Source: Acidobacteriota bacterium (GTDB lineage Bacteria; Acidobacteriota; Vicinamibacteria; Vicinamibacterales; UBA2999). Taken from it: a DNA stretch of 64,000 bases. The notes under the pieces are model-generated. The model was not told the DNA's origin, did not search any database, and worked only from the letters and a program-made list of their open reading frames with translations. A program made the translations under genes and the position numbers. How positions within the stretch are numbered: position 1 is the stretch's first letter; each line of letters begins with the position of its first letter. The stretch covers positions 538 through 64,537 of the forward strand of contig JACPTI010000065.1 of the NCBI GenBank assembly GCA_016192845.1, in the 5' to 3' direction. Below, in pieces: positions 21,584 to 44,978 of the stretch.

Positions 21584-22529
21584 ACCGCTTCCGGATTTCC
21601 TGGGCGATCTTCGCCAGCTCGATGAGAATCCGCTCGAGCTCCGCCTGGTACTGCTCGTCGGTCATCGAGCTCCGGCGCGCCTTCAACTCCTCGAACTGCT
21701 TCTCGAGCGCGAGGCGCTGCCGATCGAGCGCGACGAGCGCCGGATCGCCGCCGGCCGCGCCAGGCTCAGCATCGAGATAGACGGTCCGGGCAACCGCGCC
21801 GTCCTCGCCCGGCACGTCCGCTTCGCGTCCCTGCCCGTCGCCGTTGTCGTCGAGGACCGGCCGCTCGGTCGCCAGCTGTCCGCGCTGCTCGTAGTGCCGC
21901 TTCACCCCGGCGCTTGCGGCCGCGAACGCCTCCCATACCGAGATGCGGCCGTTCTTGTCGAAGTCGCTCGAGCGGTCGGCCAGGGCGCGCGTGAAGTACT
22001 CGGGAAACACCGTGGCAAACCGCTGGGCTGCCGAGTCGGTGGCGGTGATGACGATGCGCCCGGAGCGCGAGAGTTGCTCCAGGAAGGGAAAGCTCGATGC
22101 GGTGGTGTTCACGAGAACGAGGCGGCCGGGCAGCCCGTCGAGCATCGATTTCCACTCGGCGGCGCTGAGATCGGGGCCGACGAGGTTGAACTTCGCGTCC
22201 GTGCCGTCGAAGGTTCCGTGCCCGAGGAAGACGACCATCAGCGTGTCGTCGCGGGTCAGCCGCTTCCGCAGGTCGGCGAAGAGACGCCTGACGTTTGCGG
22301 CCGTCGCGCGGGAGCTGCCCCCGCTTTCCTCGTCGAGGACGACGACGTTCGCGTCGGCAAAGGCAAAGCCGGCGGTCAGGAACGCGGCGAGCTCCGACCG
22401 CCACTTCTGCTGCTGCGTGGCGTACCGCTCGCCGCCCGACACGCCAGAAATGACCACGGCGTACCGCTCGTCGGCGACGGCAGCCGTTGCAATCGCCACG
22501 AACAGCAGCGCAAGGACGACCCGCCTCAT
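21579..22529 (-). CDS. secreted legumain/caspase-fold (peptidase C13-like) protein lacking the expected catalytic Cys
   Basis: ORF 21579..24077 trimmed to ATG 22529 (MRRVVLALLFVAIATAAVA signal). MVVFLGHG His motif. The position about 40 aa later, where C13 enzymes have ACESGS, reads NTTASS. ATGA overlap with the upstream stop. Confidence 0.65.
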   Translation of the reverse strand: MRRVVLALLFVAIATAAVADERYAVVISGVSGGERYATQQQKWRSELAAFLTAGFAFADANVVVLDEESGGSSRATAANVRRLFADLRKRLTRDDTLMVVFLGHGTFDGTDAKFNLVGPDLSAAEWKSMLDGLPGRLVLVNTTASSFPFLEQLSRSGRIVITATDSAAQRFATVFPEYFTRALADRSSDFDKNGRISVWEAFAAASAGVKRHYEQRGQLATERPVLDDNGDGQGREADVPGEDGAVARTVYLDAEPGAAGGDPALVALDRQRLALEKQFEELKARRSSMTDEQYQAELERILIELAKIAQEIRKRS

Positions 22530-24793
22530 CGCAGTCCCCATTGCCGCCGCAGCGTCCACTCGGCGGCGAGCAGCCCGACGAGCGCGACGAAGATCCAGGC
22601 GTTGTGCCACAGCTCCTCGAGCCGCGGCGCGCTCGGCGCGGCTGCCGCCGATTTCAGCAGCGACGACAGCATCGACGCCTGGCTGGCCGACACGTACGCC
22701 CCGCCGCTCGCGAGCGCGACACGCCGCAGCACCTCCTCGTTGAGCCGGGGGTCGGCCATCTCCAGGTCGGCGCCGCCCACGAGCACGGCCCGGGCGGCGC
22801 GGCCAAGCGGTGCCCCCTCCCGCGTCGCCGTGGCGCTCACGCGGTAGATGCCCGGCTCGTCGAAGCGCAGCTCGCCCGTGTAACGCCCCGTCTGCGGGTC
22901 GGCGAGCCTGGCAACCACCTCCTCGGTCGTGCCGCCGGGGCGCGCGATGGAGAGCCGCACGTCGGCGTCGACGATCGGTGCGAACGCGTCGCTGCGGACG
23001 TCCACCGTCATCGCCGCGCCCATGCCCGGCGCAAGCCCGGAAAGCGGCGCCACGTCCACGGGATCGGGCGCCGAGGCGGATACCCACCGGACCGCCTGGC
23101 GCCAGAAGAGCTCGTGGGTGCGATCGGTGGACGGCAGTTGCATCCGCCAGCGCCATGACGCCTCGCCGGTAAACACCATCGAGCGGCCCTGTCCGTAGCG
23201 CTGGACAGCCACGAGCGGCCGCGGGCCGTCGGGAGCATGGACGAGCGCCAGCGCCTGCGCGCCCGGGCGGAGCGCACCCAGCGCGGCCACGCCCACCAGC
23301 GGCGGTACGGCGCGCCAGCGTTGCTCCAGAGTGTCTGCGGCGTCGATCCGCATCACCGGGTGCACCTGGCCTTCGTCCGTGAGGCTCACCGCCAGCCGCG
23401 ACTCGACGCGACTCGACGCGCGCATGACGCCGCTGCCGCGCTCGGTGAGGCCGACCGGCAGCACCGGTTCGAGAGGGGTCCCGGCAAACCCCTGCTGGAC
23501 GAACGACTTCGCGCCGAGCACGAGCAGGCCGCCGCCGCGATCGTCCACAAACGTCGCCAGCATGTCGAGCTGCGCCCGCGACAGCGCATCCGCCTCGACA
23601 TTGGCCAGGATGATCGCGTCGTACTCGTAGAGCGCGGAGCGCTCCTGCGGGAATCCGGTGGTCAGGCGCGCCGCGCGGCGTTCGGTCGCCTGCACGTAGT
23701 AGGTGGAGGACCCGCGCGCGTCTCGGCCCTTCCGGACGACGGAGTCGACCTCGATGCCCGGGTCGCCGGCGAGCGCGCGCTTGATGAACGCGTGTTCGAA
23801 GCCGGGCGCCCCTTCGATCATCAGCACGCGGCGGCGACGGCCCGGCGGCTCCACAAGCACGCTGCGGCGGTTGTTCTCGAGCGCAAGCTCGCCCGCCGCC
23901 GACGGAATCTCCACCGTGTAGAGCGTCGGGGTTTCCCGCGACGGCGACACCGTAAACACCGCGCGCACGGGGCCGCCGCCAGCTTCCGGCGTGACGTGGC
24001 GCAGGTCGATCGGCCGGCCGTTCTCCAGCACGCGCAGATCGAACGGCGCCGCGCTCGCACCCGCATTGGCACCCCACCGCGCAGGCGTGCGCGGTGGGGA
24101 CCCCGCATTGCCACGACTGATAGCGGTGACTGTGATGTCGATGGACGAATCCGCATGCGCCATCTCGCCGGCCGAGACATCGAGCACCTCGAAGTCGGCC
24201 GGCGGCTGCGGAGCGCCCACGCCGATGGCGTACACGGGAACGGCGGCCGCATCGGCGGCGGCCGCCGGCTCCTCGGTCCCGGTGTCGCCGCCGTCCGAGA
24301 TCACCACGACGGCGGCCACGCGCCGCTGCCGGTAGCGCTCACGCACGGCGCGGAGTGCGCCCGACAGATCGCTCCGCCGCGCGTCGGCGGCGAGCGTTCT
24401 CGTCTCCGTCACCGGCTCGAGCGCGTCGCCGAACGACCAGAGCTCGCTGCGGAAGCGGCGGTCGAGCGCAGGCCGGACGTAGCCTTCGAGCAGGTCGCGC
24501 GCGACGACGATGCGGCTCGCGCCGTCCATGTCGGCAAGCCGCATGCTTCGCGAGACGTCGATGAGCACGGGGACGACGGCATCGGTGGCGACATCCGGCG
24601 GCACGACGCGAACCGGGCGCAGGAGGCAGGCGACGAGCACGAGGAGCACGAGCGCCCGCAGGCCGGCCAGCACGGCACGCCGCCGCGGCGACAGCGGCAC
24701 GATGGCGCCGGCGTAGAACCCCCACGCGACCGCCACGATGGCGGCGGCCAGCAGGAGGAGCGCCCACCAGGGATACGAGATGGCGAACTGCAT
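22526..24793 (-). CDS. membrane protein: N-terminal double TM + vWA-like + class-I glutamine-amidotransferase-like fold + C-terminal TM
   Basis: MQFAISYPWWALLLLAAAIVAV..., VLIDVSRSM...VVVISDGGDTG (vWA MIDAS-like), YDAIILANVEADALS...GGGLLVLG (GATase1-like), C-terminal WIFVALVGLLAAEW. Confidence 0.75.
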   Translation of the reverse strand: MQFAISYPWWALLLLAAAIVAVAWGFYAGAIVPLSPRRRAVLAGLRALVLLVLVACLLRPVRVVPPDVATDAVVPVLIDVSRSMRLADMDGASRIVVARDLLEGYVRPALDRRFRSELWSFGDALEPVTETRTLAADARRSDLSGALRAVRERYRQRRVAAVVVISDGGDTGTEEPAAAADAAAVPVYAIGVGAPQPPADFEVLDVSAGEMAHADSSIDITVTAISRGNAGSPPRTPARWGANAGASAAPFDLRVLENGRPIDLRHVTPEAGGGPVRAVFTVSPSRETPTLYTVEIPSAAGELALENNRRSVLVEPPGRRRRVLMIEGAPGFEHAFIKRALAGDPGIEVDSVVRKGRDARGSSTYYVQATERRAARLTTGFPQERSALYEYDAIILANVEADALSRAQLDMLATFVDDRGGGLLVLGAKSFVQQGFAGTPLEPVLPVGLTERGSGVMRASSRVESRLAVSLTDEGQVHPVMRIDAADTLEQRWRAVPPLVGVAALGALRPGAQALALVHAPDGPRPLVAVQRYGQGRSMVFTGEASWRWRMQLPSTDRTHELFWRQAVRWVSASAPDPVDVAPLSGLAPGMGAAMTVDVRSDAFAPIVDADVRLSIARPGGTTEEVVARLADPQTGRYTGELRFDEPGIYRVSATATREGAPLGRAARAVLVGGADLEMADPRLNEEVLRRVALASGGAYVSASQASMLSSLLKSAAAAPSAPRLEELWHNAWIFVALVGLLAAEWTLRRQWGLR
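24060..24110. repeat. REP-like palindrome family A (CACCCCAYCGCGC..GCGCGRTGGGGACCCCG) with 9-bp flanking direct repeat, in frame in a CDS
   Basis: CCCGCATTG (24060-24068), then the 33-nt palindromic core GCACCCCACCGCGCAGGCGTGCGCGGTGGGGAC, then CCCGCATTG (24102-24110). Period is 42 nt = 14 codons. Translated as GNAG-SPPRTPARWGANAG. Confidence 0.8.
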
Positions 24794-27800: not shown

Positions 27801-28275
27801 CGGTCAGCAGCGCGAGCGACGCCGCCGCGGCGGCGAGCGCCGTGCGTTTCAACGCGCGCCGGCTGATGATGGCGTCGAGGTCGAGGCGCCGCGCGCGCTC
27901 GGCGGCGTCGCTGACGACGGCCGCAGCCATCGCTTCGGCGCCCGGGCCGGGCTGGCCGACGGCCGTGACGAGGGCGTCCTCCAGCTCCGGACAGCGCTCC
28001 TCGATGAAGCGCGCGATTTGCAGGTCGCGCGGCGCGCGGCGTACCGGCGCCATCGCGCGGAACAGCACGCCAAGCACCAGGAGACCGGCGGTGGCCCACA
28101 ACGCCACCAGCGCCTCCTCCTCGGGCCGGACCAACCGGTGCGTGAACAGGGCAAGCGCGAGCACGGCGGCCGCCATGGCCGACCCGGTCGCCCAGGCGCG
28201 CAGTGCGGTGATCGCCCGCCATCGGTTTCGCACCCGGGCGACCAGCGCCGACAGCTCCAGGTGGCGCTCGCCCAT
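24802..28275 (-). CDS. large two-TM protein with long Q/R/E/A-rich coiled-coil-like region (DUF4175-like)
   Basis: ORF 24802..28344 trimmed to ATG 28275, which overlaps the upstream TGA at 28275-28277. N-terminal TMs: ATGSAMAAAVLALALF and LWATAGLLVLGVLF. Several hundred residues of QQ/RR/EE/A low complexity. Confidence 0.75.
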   Translation of the reverse strand: MGERHLELSALVARVRNRWRAITALRAWATGSAMAAAVLALALFTHRLVRPEEEALVALWATAGLLVLGVLFRAMAPVRRAPRDLQIARFIEERCPELEDALVTAVGQPGPGAEAMAAAVVSDAAERARRLDLDAIISRRALKRTALAAAAASLALLTGVGFSAGPAGAAARTAGVYLFPERLALEVSPGDARVRAGESLRVTARTSAGASIVPVLRVRDGEAWRDRRMDAAPEGFAVTIEAIGDDFQYLVAAAGTSTRAYAVTVLRPPRVERIDLRYEYPSGFGMAPRSEKDGGDIYGPAGTRVQITVHTDKPVRSAALNLTGGQPIPLAGRGGAMVGELTIAEDGSYRVALADTDGLTNPGETEYFIRTLQDRPPDVRIVRPASDRQVTSVEEVSIEASADDDFGVAALDLVYAVRGGPEKVVPFDRRGSGTAVTGSRTLYLEDLTVRPGDFVTYYARARDVSRGKHSSEARSDIFFLEVTPFEEEFVAAESQGMGAGSGDEQSLEELIQGQKDIITATWNLDRRGRESGARSPDDIRTVARAQSDLRGRTSALHAQMQRAGNLRRRLPSGRGSANPDAMVEAIGRAVQAMGSAHEQLQALRTTDALPHEMTALNELLRAQAEIRQRQVQQQASGTGGRGSNRQQQDLSSLFDRELAKQQQTNYETPASRESRNEENNQDEVADRIQELARRQDALNRSQQELARKRETASQEEIRRELERLTREQTELRRQAEELARELQQGQQQGRQQGPQRAQQSSGGRGAGGSPSDRQQASRELQQAAEDMQGAASELRRDNPQQASARGSRAAERLRDVEQRMRGSQPDDRRRALGELQLESQQLADAQRRLGQDAAGGREGGDRADRARRRAAEQERLAERAERLDRSVRQLADGGSDTNALQQNALDEAVKELDRSRTVQRMRDAARAERQVAEGRGQESGARGQEPQARRPGPSGPGEPLTPRESEGIARGLERLADRLAAAGAESGESDQASEELSRLRQLREELARLDRQLGEMRDRAGDQNAGQSARGRGGRQGGQGAEGGRGGQNIDATGGWQDARELLNELHEFGVVPDVEGFNPGRSAPGTEPWKQDFAKWDELKVQLAAALERLERTAADRVREQQSRDRLNAGRSQAVPEQYRRLVERYYRALAAGEKR

Positions 28276-30233
28276 CACCCGAGCCTCCTGCCCAGCAGGC
28301 CCTCGGCCGCCAGACTGACCACGAGCAGCAGCAGACCGTACCACCAGAGCCCCTGGGCATCTTCATCGCGGCGCGCTTCGGTCTGCGCTGCCCGAGCGGC
28401 GCTTGCCTGCAGCCGCGAGATGCCCGCCTGGAACGCCTCCACCGGCATCCGCCGCGGATCCGACTCGCGCGGGTCGGTGTTTACCGCGACGCGCCGGCTA
28501 CGCGGCTGGTTCTGCGCCAGCTGCACGACGCCCGGCGCAGTTCCGGCGGCGCCCGGCAGCTCCCCGACCAGGTACTCGGACCGCGTGGTGTGCGGTGCGG
28601 CGAGGTAGCGGATCGTTTCGTGCACGAACGGCACGAACGCCGGCTGCAGCGGAAAGTCGTTCCACCGGTGATTGAGATCCGATCCGAACACGAGCACGCG
28701 GCCGGCATCCGTTCGCTCCTCGACGAGCGCCGGCGTGCCGTCGGTATAGCGGGCCAGGATCCCGGCGCCCTCGGGCGCCTCGACGAGTGCCGCGCGCGTG
28801 AATCTGACGTGGCCGAGCGTCCCGACGCCGCCGAACGGACGGAAGACCGGGTGGCGGCCGTCGGCCGGCGCGAAACTCAACGCCGCCTCCCGCACGCGCC
28901 ACGAGGTCGACACGATCCCGGCGAGCGCCTGCGTGAAGATCGCGGGATCGACGTCGGGGCCGGCCGTGACCAGCAGCCCGCCGCCGGACCGCACGAAGCG
29001 CGCCAGCCGCTCGCGCCCGCGCTCGTCGAGCCCCTGCGTCCCGGCGACGACAAGCACGTCGACGTCGCCGAGCGCCTCGGGGCCGAACGCGGAGAAAGAC
29101 GAGGCGCGGATGGCGCGAAACCGGAACCCCCCGGCGCCCTCGGAGACGGCCAGGGCGCGCTCGAGATAGAGCGCCTCGGACGGATGGCCTGACGCGGTCA
29201 GCGCCAGCACCGCGACGGCGCTCCCGCCGTCGAGCACCGCATAGCGCGCGTTGTCCGCGAGGAAGCCGTCGCGGTCGCTGATCGAGGCGACGAGCGCGCC
29301 GCCAGACGGGCCGTCGAGCGCGAGTCGCGCTTCGGCGCTGCCGCCCGGCGCGAGCGTCACCGGCACCGCGCCCAGTCGGCGCTGCTGCACCCCAACGCGC
29401 AAAGTCCGCGCGACGCCCACCCCATCGCGCTGGCGCGATGGGGACCCCGGGTGGGGGACCCCGCGCTGCTCCGCCTGGAACACCACCTGGTCGGCCGCGG
29501 GACGCGAGGAGAAATTCTGCACGACCGCAATGGCCTCGCCCGCTTCGACGCGAAGCGATGTGATCGCGAGGTTTGCGTCAGGACCGTCGACCTCCTCCAC
29601 GCCCACCGCGACGCCCTCGGGGATCGCCGCTTCGGTAGCCGCATCCCATCCGCTCTCCTGCAGATCCGTCACGACGACGATCCGGCCGCCGCGACCGGCC
29701 AACTCTTCCCCGGCGCGCTGCAGCGCCGCGCGGTATCGGGTGGCGCCCGCACCCGGCGTGAGCTGCGCAATGGCGGCCAGCGCGCCCGCGCGGTCGGCGA
29801 AGAGCGGGGCGATGACGTCGGCGGCCTGCGCGAAGGCGAGCACGGCCACCTCGTGCGTGGCGGGCGCGGAGCGAACGACCTCGGCGGCTCGCTCGCGCGC
29901 CCGCTCGAACTGCCCCGCCGCGGAGAGGCTGGCGGAGGTGTCGATGAGCACGACGGTGGCGGCCCCGGACGAAGCGGCAGCGCCAGCGAGGTAGGGGCGC
30001 GCGAAGGCGCACGCCAGCAGCACGAGCGCCGTCACCCGAAGCGCCAGCAGGAGCAGCTCGCGCAGGCGGCGCCGCCGCGACTCCTCCACGGGCGCCTGCC
30101 GGAGGTACCGCATCGCCGCGAACTCGATCACCGGCTCCGCGCGGCGGTAGAAGAGATGGATGGCGATGGGAATCGCCGCCGCGGCGGCGCCAATCAGGAA
30201 GAGCGGCGAGAGAAACGACACCCCGAACATCAC
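28275..30233 (-). CDS. BatA-type N-terminal double-TM domain + vWA domain protein
   Basis: MMFGVSFLSPLFLIGAAAAAIPIAIHLFYRR..., RELLLLALRVTALVLLACAFARP, VVLIDTSASL (MIDAS DxSxS). Confidence 0.8.
   Translation of the reverse strand: MMFGVSFLSPLFLIGAAAAAIPIAIHLFYRRAEPVIEFAAMRYLRQAPVEESRRRRLRELLLLALRVTALVLLACAFARPYLAGAAASSGAATVVLIDTSASLSAAGQFERARERAAEVVRSAPATHEVAVLAFAQAADVIAPLFADRAGALAAIAQLTPGAGATRYRAALQRAGEELAGRGGRIVVVTDLQESGWDAATEAAIPEGVAVGVEEVDGPDANLAITSLRVEAGEAIAVVQNFSSRPAADQVVFQAEQRGVPHPGSPSRQRDGVGVARTLRVGVQQRRLGAVPVTLAPGGSAEARLALDGPSGGALVASISDRDGFLADNARYAVLDGGSAVAVLALTASGHPSEALYLERALAVSEGAGGFRFRAIRASSFSAFGPEALGDVDVLVVAGTQGLDERGRERLARFVRSGGGLLVTAGPDVDPAIFTQALAGIVSTSWRVREAALSFAPADGRHPVFRPFGGVGTLGHVRFTRAALVEAPEGAGILARYTDGTPALVEERTDAGRVLVFGSDLNHRWNDFPLQPAFVPFVHETIRYLAAPHTTRSEYLVGELPGAAGTAPGVVQLAQNQPRSRRVAVNTDPRESDPRRMPVEAFQAGISRLQASAARAAQTEARRDEDAQGLWWYGLLLLVVSLAAEGLLGRRLG
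29388..29463. repeat. REP-like family A composite copy, in frame in the BatA/vWA CDS
   Basis: CACCCCAACGCGC..., then the hairpin CCCCATCGCG-CTGG-CGCGATGGGG (29420-29443), followed by GGGGACCCCG twice (29440-29449, 29454-29463). Translated as EQRGVPHPGSPSRQRDGVGVARTLRVGV. Confidence 0.7.
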
Positions 30234-44913: not shown

Positions 44914-44978
44914 CACCCCATCGCGCAGGGCCGGGGTCCCCACGGCGCCCGCGCCGTGGGGTGGTAGACGCGATGGGG
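44914..44978. repeat. nested REP-like family A hairpins in the leader of the PmtA-like gene
   Basis: Outer CACCCCATCGCG (44914-44925) pairs with CGCGATGGGG (44969-44978). Inner hairpin CCCCACGGCGC/GCGCCGTGGGG at 44938-44961. Confidence 0.65.

Follow-up and report, generated by a model that had tools for sequence, protein, structure and literature searches.

Does a short palindrome that lies in frame within a coding sequence, between two perfect 9-nucleotide (nt) repeats, mark a mobile element with its target-site duplication (TSD)? The question is raised by a locus in a 64,000-nt stretch of contig JACPTI010000065.1 (hereafter the window), from a metagenome-assembled genome (MAG) of the order Vicinamibacterales, phylum Acidobacteriota (GCA_016192845.1). 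Positions 24060-24110 read CCCGCATTG, the 33-nt palindrome GCACCCCACCGCGCAGGCGTGCGCGGTGGGGAC and CCCGCATTG again, exactly the in-frame palindrome with a perfect flanking repeat that a first-pass annotation had described, and the 9-mers, at 24060-24068 and 24102-24110, are spaced by 42 nt. We observe that this palindrome belongs to a lineage-specific family of selfish repeats resembling the repetitive extragenic palindromes (REPs), and that it lies within a 54-nt insertion in a gene for a BatB-like protein (Table 1). The 9-nt repeat probably reflects the periodicity of tandem units and not a TSD, with the 54 nt made up of one full unit and the remnant of another, most likely shortened by slippage. 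On this account the apparent TSD around a 33-nt element would be the ordinary spacing of tandem units in a repeat of the REP type, and a false lead can be set aside.

A 54-nt insertion in a protein loop

The hairpin pairs CCCCACCGCGCA with TGCGCGGTGGGG in a 12-bp stem around the 4-nt loop GGCG. Folded as single-stranded DNA it reaches -21.5 kcal/mol (z, -2.9), and its 28-mer finds no match in 100 shuffles of the window. Rfam 15 covariance models gave no match at the gathering score over the whole window.

The 755-amino-acid (aa) product of the host gene matches the Pfam domain GATase1_like (4.7e-10), with weak matches to VWA and YtkA, and the insert is translated in frame as residues 229-246 (...ISRG-NAGSPPRTPARWGANAGA-SAAPFDL...). 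The empty site is found in every orthologue examined: all 13 (736-743 aa, with protein identities from 85% to about 50%) read (S/N)RG|SAAPF, leaving a gap of exactly 18 codons in the codon alignment. The insertion bounds are 24056-24109 or 24057-24110, as set by the host glycine codon, GGC versus GGG. Among 119 metagenome homologues, 116 likewise lack an insertion at the site, two have unrelated insertions and a third is one residue shorter.

The missing length is thus 54 nt, not 42, and the orthologues have neither GNAG nor GANAG, the motifs that had been taken for a duplication around a novel peptide. Because the orthologues lack both the 54 nt and the two motifs, both 9-mers lie inside the inserted DNA, which means that the repeat does not duplicate the target as seen in orthologues. 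Host and insert share only 1 nt at the true junction, and the interpretation of the 9-mer as a TSD-like footprint of the insertion is not supported.

In an AlphaFold2 model of the protein (mean predicted local distance difference test [pLDDT] score, 79.6), residues 230-245 fall below a pLDDT of 50 between the strands at 218-227 and 251-257. The 18 added residues are accordingly modeled as a disordered loop of a surface beta-hairpin, in a gene that stays intact. P0119 and P0116, the two metagenome homologues with unrelated insertions, have gained 4 and 13 residues, respectively, at the same point of the loop, which makes this loop a general hot spot of tolerated indels.

A hairpin family and its tandem units

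The assembly to which the window belongs (G000), from a soil/groundwater acidobacterium, is a 4.5-Mb MAG of 153 contigs, denoted here by C numbers, and is 92% complete. Searched with the consensus proposed in the first-pass annotation, it yields 92 sites per strand, versus 0 for a reversed control. The exact pattern is present in 98 copies, 249 copies have at most one error per arm and 196 have perfect stems of at least 9 bp; near-exact copies number about 190-250. The 28-mer of the window hairpin is the commonest variant of this family, with 18 exact copies in the genome. The genome copies and the empty sites together bear out the proposal that the palindrome is an inserted copy of a dispersed element.

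The unit of the family consists of a head (SCA), a hairpin (CCCCAYCGCGC-loop-GCGCGRTGGGG), a tail (RCCCCG) and a spacer of about 5 variable bases. Hairpins are G+C-rich, 24-30 nt long and capped by CCCC/GGGG, and units span 38-46 bp. In the flank logo, the 5' side has C at -2 in 198/233 copies and A at -1 in 172/233, and on the 3' side, RCCCCG, positions +2 to +4 are C in at least 225/233 copies and position +6 is G in 198/233; these asymmetric flanks allow copies to be oriented. Of the element of 33 nt that was first suggested, the palindrome stands, but the true unit is wider, with SCA and RCCCCG conserved on either side of the hairpin. Subfamilies vary at stem position 6 (CCCCA[C/T/A/G]CGCGC and CCCCACGGCGC) with a compensating change in the other arm, and perfect-stem copies number 58 for CCCCACCGCGC, 42 for CCCCATCGCGC, 36 for CCCCAACGCGC, 20 for CCCCACGGCGC and 15 for CCCCAGCGCGC.

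Across 40 relatives, matches are scattered patchily through one taxonomic family, with lower numbers in some sister genera (22, 20, 8, 6, 4, and 2 matches versus 92 in G000), and the pattern is absent from those scanned outside it. The species nearest to G000 is “Acidobacteria bacterium RIFCSPLOWO2_12_FULL_68_19” (G001). As a short, stable, G+C-rich hairpin of high copy number, mostly extragenic and with compensatory stem changes, the family is a REP in the broad sense. It has not been described previously and comes from an uncultured acidobacterial order, while intragenic REPs are an already known kind of phenomenon.

Read by units, the insert is GCA-CCCG-CATTG followed by GCA-hairpin-ACCCCG-CATTG; that is, its left part is a head fused to the end of a tail with the same spacer. 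This 12-nt part, CGCACCCGCATT, holds the left 9-mer and adds NAGA (GNAGA) to the protein. The remaining 42 nt comprise the head GCA (24069-24071), the hairpin, the tail ACCCCG (24100-24105) and the spacer CATTG (24106-24110), so that the right 9-mer lies inside the complete unit and its first four bases, CCCG, are conserved element tail.

The same periodicity is seen elsewhere in the genome. Tandem arrays have linkers of 14-15 nt (ACCCCG-N5/6-SCA) that are identical within each array, as at C54:30535-30636, where ACCCCGCGACGGCA occurs three times. Arrays at C54:30535-30636, C19:21156-21227, and C122:23692-23764 comprise two or three units in direct orientation; that at C54 lies, in turn, within the 3' arm of a further hairpin. 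Flanking repeats of at least 8 nt are found at 12 family copies versus about 1 expected (for repeats of at least 9 nt, with the control bins from 9 nt upward summed, chance predicts about 0.1-0.8 copies), and the spacing equals the hairpin plus 14 or 15 nt in 18 of the 30 copies whose repeat reaches at least 6 nt. Two solo copies are laid out like the insert, C52:48174 (CTA-CCCG-CTAGG-GCA-hairpin-AC-CCCG-CTAGG) and C80:13818 (GCA-CCCCG-CTCG-GCA-hairpin-G-CCCCG-CTCG). Genome-wide, flank identity is raised only at a period of hairpin+14, at positions -7 to -5 (0.35-0.42 versus 0.24-0.29; z, 3.5-5.7); because this signal is real but partial, most copies have no recognizable duplication.

A 12-nt remnant also occurs at a second locus. 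At the C137:11041 site, G000 has a 42-nt unit, its sister genome G001 has 12 nt (...GTC CCA CC CGGCGT, translated GGTS; L045, G001:C36), and four genomes at a greater distance, G002, G003, G007, and G023, have nothing. The 12 nt correspond to the unit minus hairpin and AC (30 nt), and judging from this alignment the GGTS remnant looks like a footprint of hairpin loss. This pair of 42-nt and 12-nt alleles in sister genomes suggests that the family can leave 4-codon scars, a possible source of small indels in protein loops.

From these observations we infer an order of events for the BatB-like gene. The element would have entered the beta-hairpin loop once the lineage had diverged from the nearest species with a sequenced genome, and a second unit would have joined the first by tandem duplication or by a second insertion. 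Loss of the hairpin from the upstream unit would have followed, most likely through slippage during replication between the stem-opening CCCC and the CCCC of the tail. Such slippage would delete 29-30 nt, of which only the in-frame, 30-nt version would survive within a gene; palindromes are unstable in general, and loss of the hairpin by slippage is drawn from that property. The outcome would be the 54 nt observed, a 12-nt remnant plus a complete 42-nt unit, with the 9-mer being tail plus spacer (CCCG+CATTG) of successive units. Spread of the family itself may proceed via a single-stranded hairpin intermediate that is cut and joined by an enzyme.

Several points weigh against this account. Only about 5% of solo copies have a tail-like CCCG at linker distance, and the 12-nt remnant lacks one C of the canonical tail. 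Among homologues of the BatB-like gene, the nearest of which has about 85% protein identity, we found no full-dimer allele and no 12-nt-only allele, and searches for Y1_Tnp genes and insertion sequence (IS) ends in the 92%-complete assembly identified no mobilizing enzyme. Two further points, an older origin of the 12 nt and a copy made in a single step, underlie alternatives that are weighed below.

Other insertion sites and the alternatives

When up to one error per arm is allowed, 18 of the 249 copies lie inside long open reading frames (ORFs) with coding-type (high) G+C content at third codon positions, and 12 of these 18 are confirmed as intragenic. Eight were confirmed by comparison with orthologues, namely six clean sites, the BatB-like target and C37:49558, and four by the surrounding Pfam domains (AcrB, the xanthine dehydrogenase domain MoCoBD, EutA, and TctA/B). 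At least 12 real genes thus have translated copies, including TamB-like, HrcA, Lhr, EutA, AcrB, and xanthine dehydrogenase genes and others. Seven sites, the target included, could be compared codon by codon with empty orthologous sites; at the eighth, C37:49558, the region varies among orthologues and the boundaries are ambiguous.

Table 1. Features of the insertion in the BatB-like gene, further copies of the family, and junction repeats at the six other clean sites. Locations with no contig prefix are window positions.
Feature	Location	Strand	Host gene	Basis	Junction repeat
Host gene, 755-aa BatB / GATase1-like / VWA membrane protein	22526..24793	-		ORF, Pfam, orthologues	
Insertion, 54 nt / 18 codons, in frame	24056..24110	+	BatB-like	Codon alignment with 13 orthologues	
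12-nt hairpin-less remnant: head GCA + CCCG + spacer CATTG	24057..24068	+	BatB-like	Layout like tandem-array linkers	
Complete 42-nt unit	24069..24110	+	BatB-like	Family flank logo; three other 42-nt insertions	
Hairpin	24072..24099	+	BatB-like	Single-stranded DNA fold; 18 exact 28-mers in genome	
Third family copy in window, CCCCACGGCGC subfamily, 24-nt hairpin	44938..44961	-		Genome-wide hairpin scan	
84-nt composite	29379..29470	+	BatA-like, 28275..30233 (-)	Codon alignment with orthologues	AGCAGCGC (8 nt)
42-nt insertion	C1:16894		TamB-like	Codon alignment with orthologues	CGGCGG (6 nt)
42-nt insertion	C137:11041		TamB/BamA-like	Codon alignment with orthologues	GCCGG (5 nt)
42-nt insertion	C82:39047		HrcA	Codon alignment with orthologues	AGGA (4 nt)
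39-nt insertion	C134:14792		EutA	Codon alignment with orthologues	1 nt
39-nt insertion	C12:2023		Lhr	Codon alignment with orthologues	0 nt

Junction repeats of 4-8 nt are present at 4/6 of these sites, where a repeat of at least 4 nt would arise by chance at 2.7% of random sites (P, about 8e-6). The repeats in HrcA and at the BatA-like composite are host-derived, because the orthologues have a single occurrence of the repeated bases. Duplication, as first proposed for the target, or microhomology upon insertion is thereby a real feature of the family, with host-derived repeats of 4, 5, 6, and 8 nt at four other intragenic copies, but is not the source of the 9-mer. The repeats vary in both length (0-8 nt) and position. 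Elements of the IS200/IS605 type insert 3' of a fixed tetra- or pentanucleotide; in the family, three of the repeats coincide in part with the CG(S) of the tail, a possible common cleavage motif, and AGGA does not. Comparison of filled and empty sites suggests that insertion is often, though not always, accompanied by a short duplication or microhomology. We rejected a TSD fixed at 4 nt with constant element ends (3+7 or 6+4), as no single pair of boundaries fits all sites, and likewise a constant hairpin+14 rule, which holds for the 28- and 25-nt hairpins, with +15 at the 24-nt EutA hairpin and +16/17 at the outer composite.

The BatA-like composite is in frame and 28 codons long. One unit sits within the 3' arm of an outer hairpin of the CCCCAACGCGC type, and the host-derived 8-nt repeat GCGCTGCT lies on both sides of the composite (29379-29386 and 29463-29470); six orthologues lack the 28 codons and have a single GAG CAG CNC at the site. 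The gene belongs to the same operon as the BatB-like gene. A larger composite, AACGCGCAAAGTCCGCGCGACGCCA-hairpin-ACCCCGSGTTGGGG-RCCCCGC, is present at C12:28310-28440 and about 15 similar loci, and seems to have been amplified as a unit after one nesting event.

These junctions admit a broader reading, possible though on balance unlikely, in which the family is a mobile element of a new, minimal kind that consists of a hairpin and a linker of about 14 nt. It would move with no RAYT (REP-associated tyrosine transposase), as a unit-length circular or tandem single-stranded DNA intermediate that integrates at short microhomologies, and on later loss of its hairpin by slippage would leave 12-nt (4-codon) footprints. 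A unit-length intermediate using microhomology would explain the near-constant hairpin+14/15 alongside junction repeats of variable length (0-8 nt) and position. If this reading were true, the family would continually supply Vicinamibacterales proteins with loop insertions in frame and with small indels.

A genuine TSD at the BatB-like locus seems quite unlikely. It would require a prior 12-nt (NAGA) indel, followed by entry of a 33-nt element (GCA-hairpin-AC) through a 9-bp staggered cut that duplicated CCCGCATTG. The extra 12 nt could indeed be an older, unrelated 4-codon indel in a tolerant loop, as P0119 (4 residues) and P0116 (13 residues) illustrate; the repeat has no mismatch and adjoins the head directly, and other copies do have host-derived junction repeats of 4-8 nt. 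However, the additional event would have had to produce a sequence mimicking the element's own head and tail (GCA-CCCG), and the right 9-mer starts inside a tail that is conserved in about 85-98% of copies. The element would moreover measure hairpin+5 here, whereas every other site measures hairpin+14/15 including the repeat, and junction repeats elsewhere span 0-8 nt and are never a fixed 9.

Alternatively, all 54 nt, as spacer, unit and spacer, could have been copied in one step from an array or a remnant-plus-unit locus already present elsewhere in the genome, by template switching or microhomology-mediated repair and not by element-specific transposition. Such a copy would place both 9-mers inside the insert and is sequence-identical to, and so indistinguishable from, the product of duplication and hairpin loss; tandem arrays exist as potential sources, and tail plus spacer, ACCCCGCATTG, recur at C5:34265, C12:28384, and C95:22346. 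We regard it as improbable, however: no donor with the full 54-mer, nor a second GCATTGGCACCCC, is present in the 92%-complete assembly, and three other insertions with 28-nt hairpins are exactly 42 nt long, with two shorter-hairpin ones at 39 nt, which favors a defined mobile unit over segments copied at random. An assembly error in a 153-contig MAG, or a coincidental palindrome and repeat, is extremely improbable given an in-frame insert in the middle of a 65-kb contig, 18 occurrences of the identical 28-mer, seven other intragenic copies compared with orthologues (six with clean empty sites) and the lack of any match in the shuffles.

Known repeat systems and the search for a mobilizing enzyme

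Intragenic singles, dimers, and groups have been reported for the GTAG- and CGTC-tagged REPs (Di Nocera, De Gregorio & Rocco 2013, BMC Genomics 14:522, PMC3733652), of which the CGTC super-family has no dedicated transposase; flanking duplications are not mentioned in that paper (0 occurrences of “duplicat”). Like those REPs, the family described here is a G+C-rich hairpin in high copy number, mostly extragenic, with a minority of copies translated in frame in real genes. It differs in its unpaired ends, SCA (5') and RCCCCG (3'), with neither the GTAG nor the CGTC tag on either strand, in its acidobacterial host, and in having neighbors in direct tandem where the others form predominantly head-to-head dimers.

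With the REP and REPIN (REP doublet) systems linked to RAYTs (Nunvar et al. 2010, PMC2817692; Bertels & Rainey 2011, PMC3116915), the family shares size, copy number, an asymmetric conserved flank, compensatory stem variants, and a lineage-restricted, vertical distribution. In contrast to REP-RAYT systems, we find no RAYT flanked by the cognate repeat. Inverted REPIN doublets are absent among the perfect copies, all five close pairs (at most 40 nt apart) being in direct orientation, and nested composites exist instead. Transposition of the IS200/IS605 type makes no target duplication (PMC2817692), unlike the 4/6 family sites with host-derived junction repeats of 4-8 nt. Such repeats at four sites, together with the lack of a linked RAYT, lie outside what the standard REP/IS200 model predicts.

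The Rickettsia palindromic elements (RPEs; Ogata et al. 2000, Science 290:347, cited in PMC3184786 and PMC3733652) are the classic in-frame case. They resemble the family in being selfish palindromes in frame in many unrelated genes, in surface loops, with host proteins that stay functional in the RPE case; they differ in reaching about 146 bp (PMC3184786) in an obligate intracellular alphaproteobacterium, compared with 38-46 bp in a free-living acidobacterium. Miniature inverted-repeat transposable elements (MITEs; e.g., Correia/nemis and RUP; Delihas 2011, PMC3184786) offer a further parallel, as the hairpin arms could be viewed as a pair of adjoining 12-bp terminal inverted repeats and some family copies have flanking direct repeats of host origin. 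Unlike DDE-type MITEs, with their fixed-length TSD, the family has junction repeats of no fixed length (0, 1, 4, 5, 6, and 8 nt) and is several-fold smaller, and no autonomous IS with its ends was found. The unusual aspects are limited to the family-level junction repeats and the 12-nt remnants.

RAYTs had been put forward as candidate mobilizing enzymes, and the search found none linked to the family, though a missing gene is possible in an assembly that is 92% complete. Two PF01797 (Y1_Tnp) genes are present, at C80:48253 and C134:4050, neither ORF having a copy of the family within 600 nt. Their flanks instead hold other repeat families, GGGGTCAGACCCC (39 copies) and GTCCGGCnnnGCCGGAC, GTCCGGC-N-GCCGGAC (185 copies). 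The two loci, both RAYT-like, are bracketed by GGGGTCAGACCCCGGTGACG (C80:47971-48879; 39 core copies) and by GTAGCGTCCGGCnnnGCCGGAC (C134:3918-4745; 185 core copies). Among 31 Y1 loci of the genome and its relatives, none is flanked by the family, and the one family-like match lies about 760 nt off, inside another region. Across 41 genomes, the presence of Y1_Tnp does not track family abundance, G021 having 20 exact copies and no Y1_Tnp match. A RAYT was accordingly rejected as the mobilizer, since the Y1 flanks carry other repeats and Y1 presence does not parallel REP abundance in the genome and its 40 relatives. Nor did a search for a parent IS with matching ends succeed: half-sites paired at 200-5000 nt bound no transposase and nothing IS-like. 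At L075 (G004:C17), a RAYT-like Y1_Tnp gene has four copies of CCCCGTCGCGTGTTGCCGATGGGG in the 500 nt upstream of it, and these repeats, in a genome without the exact family pattern, may represent a distantly related family that is linked to a transposase.

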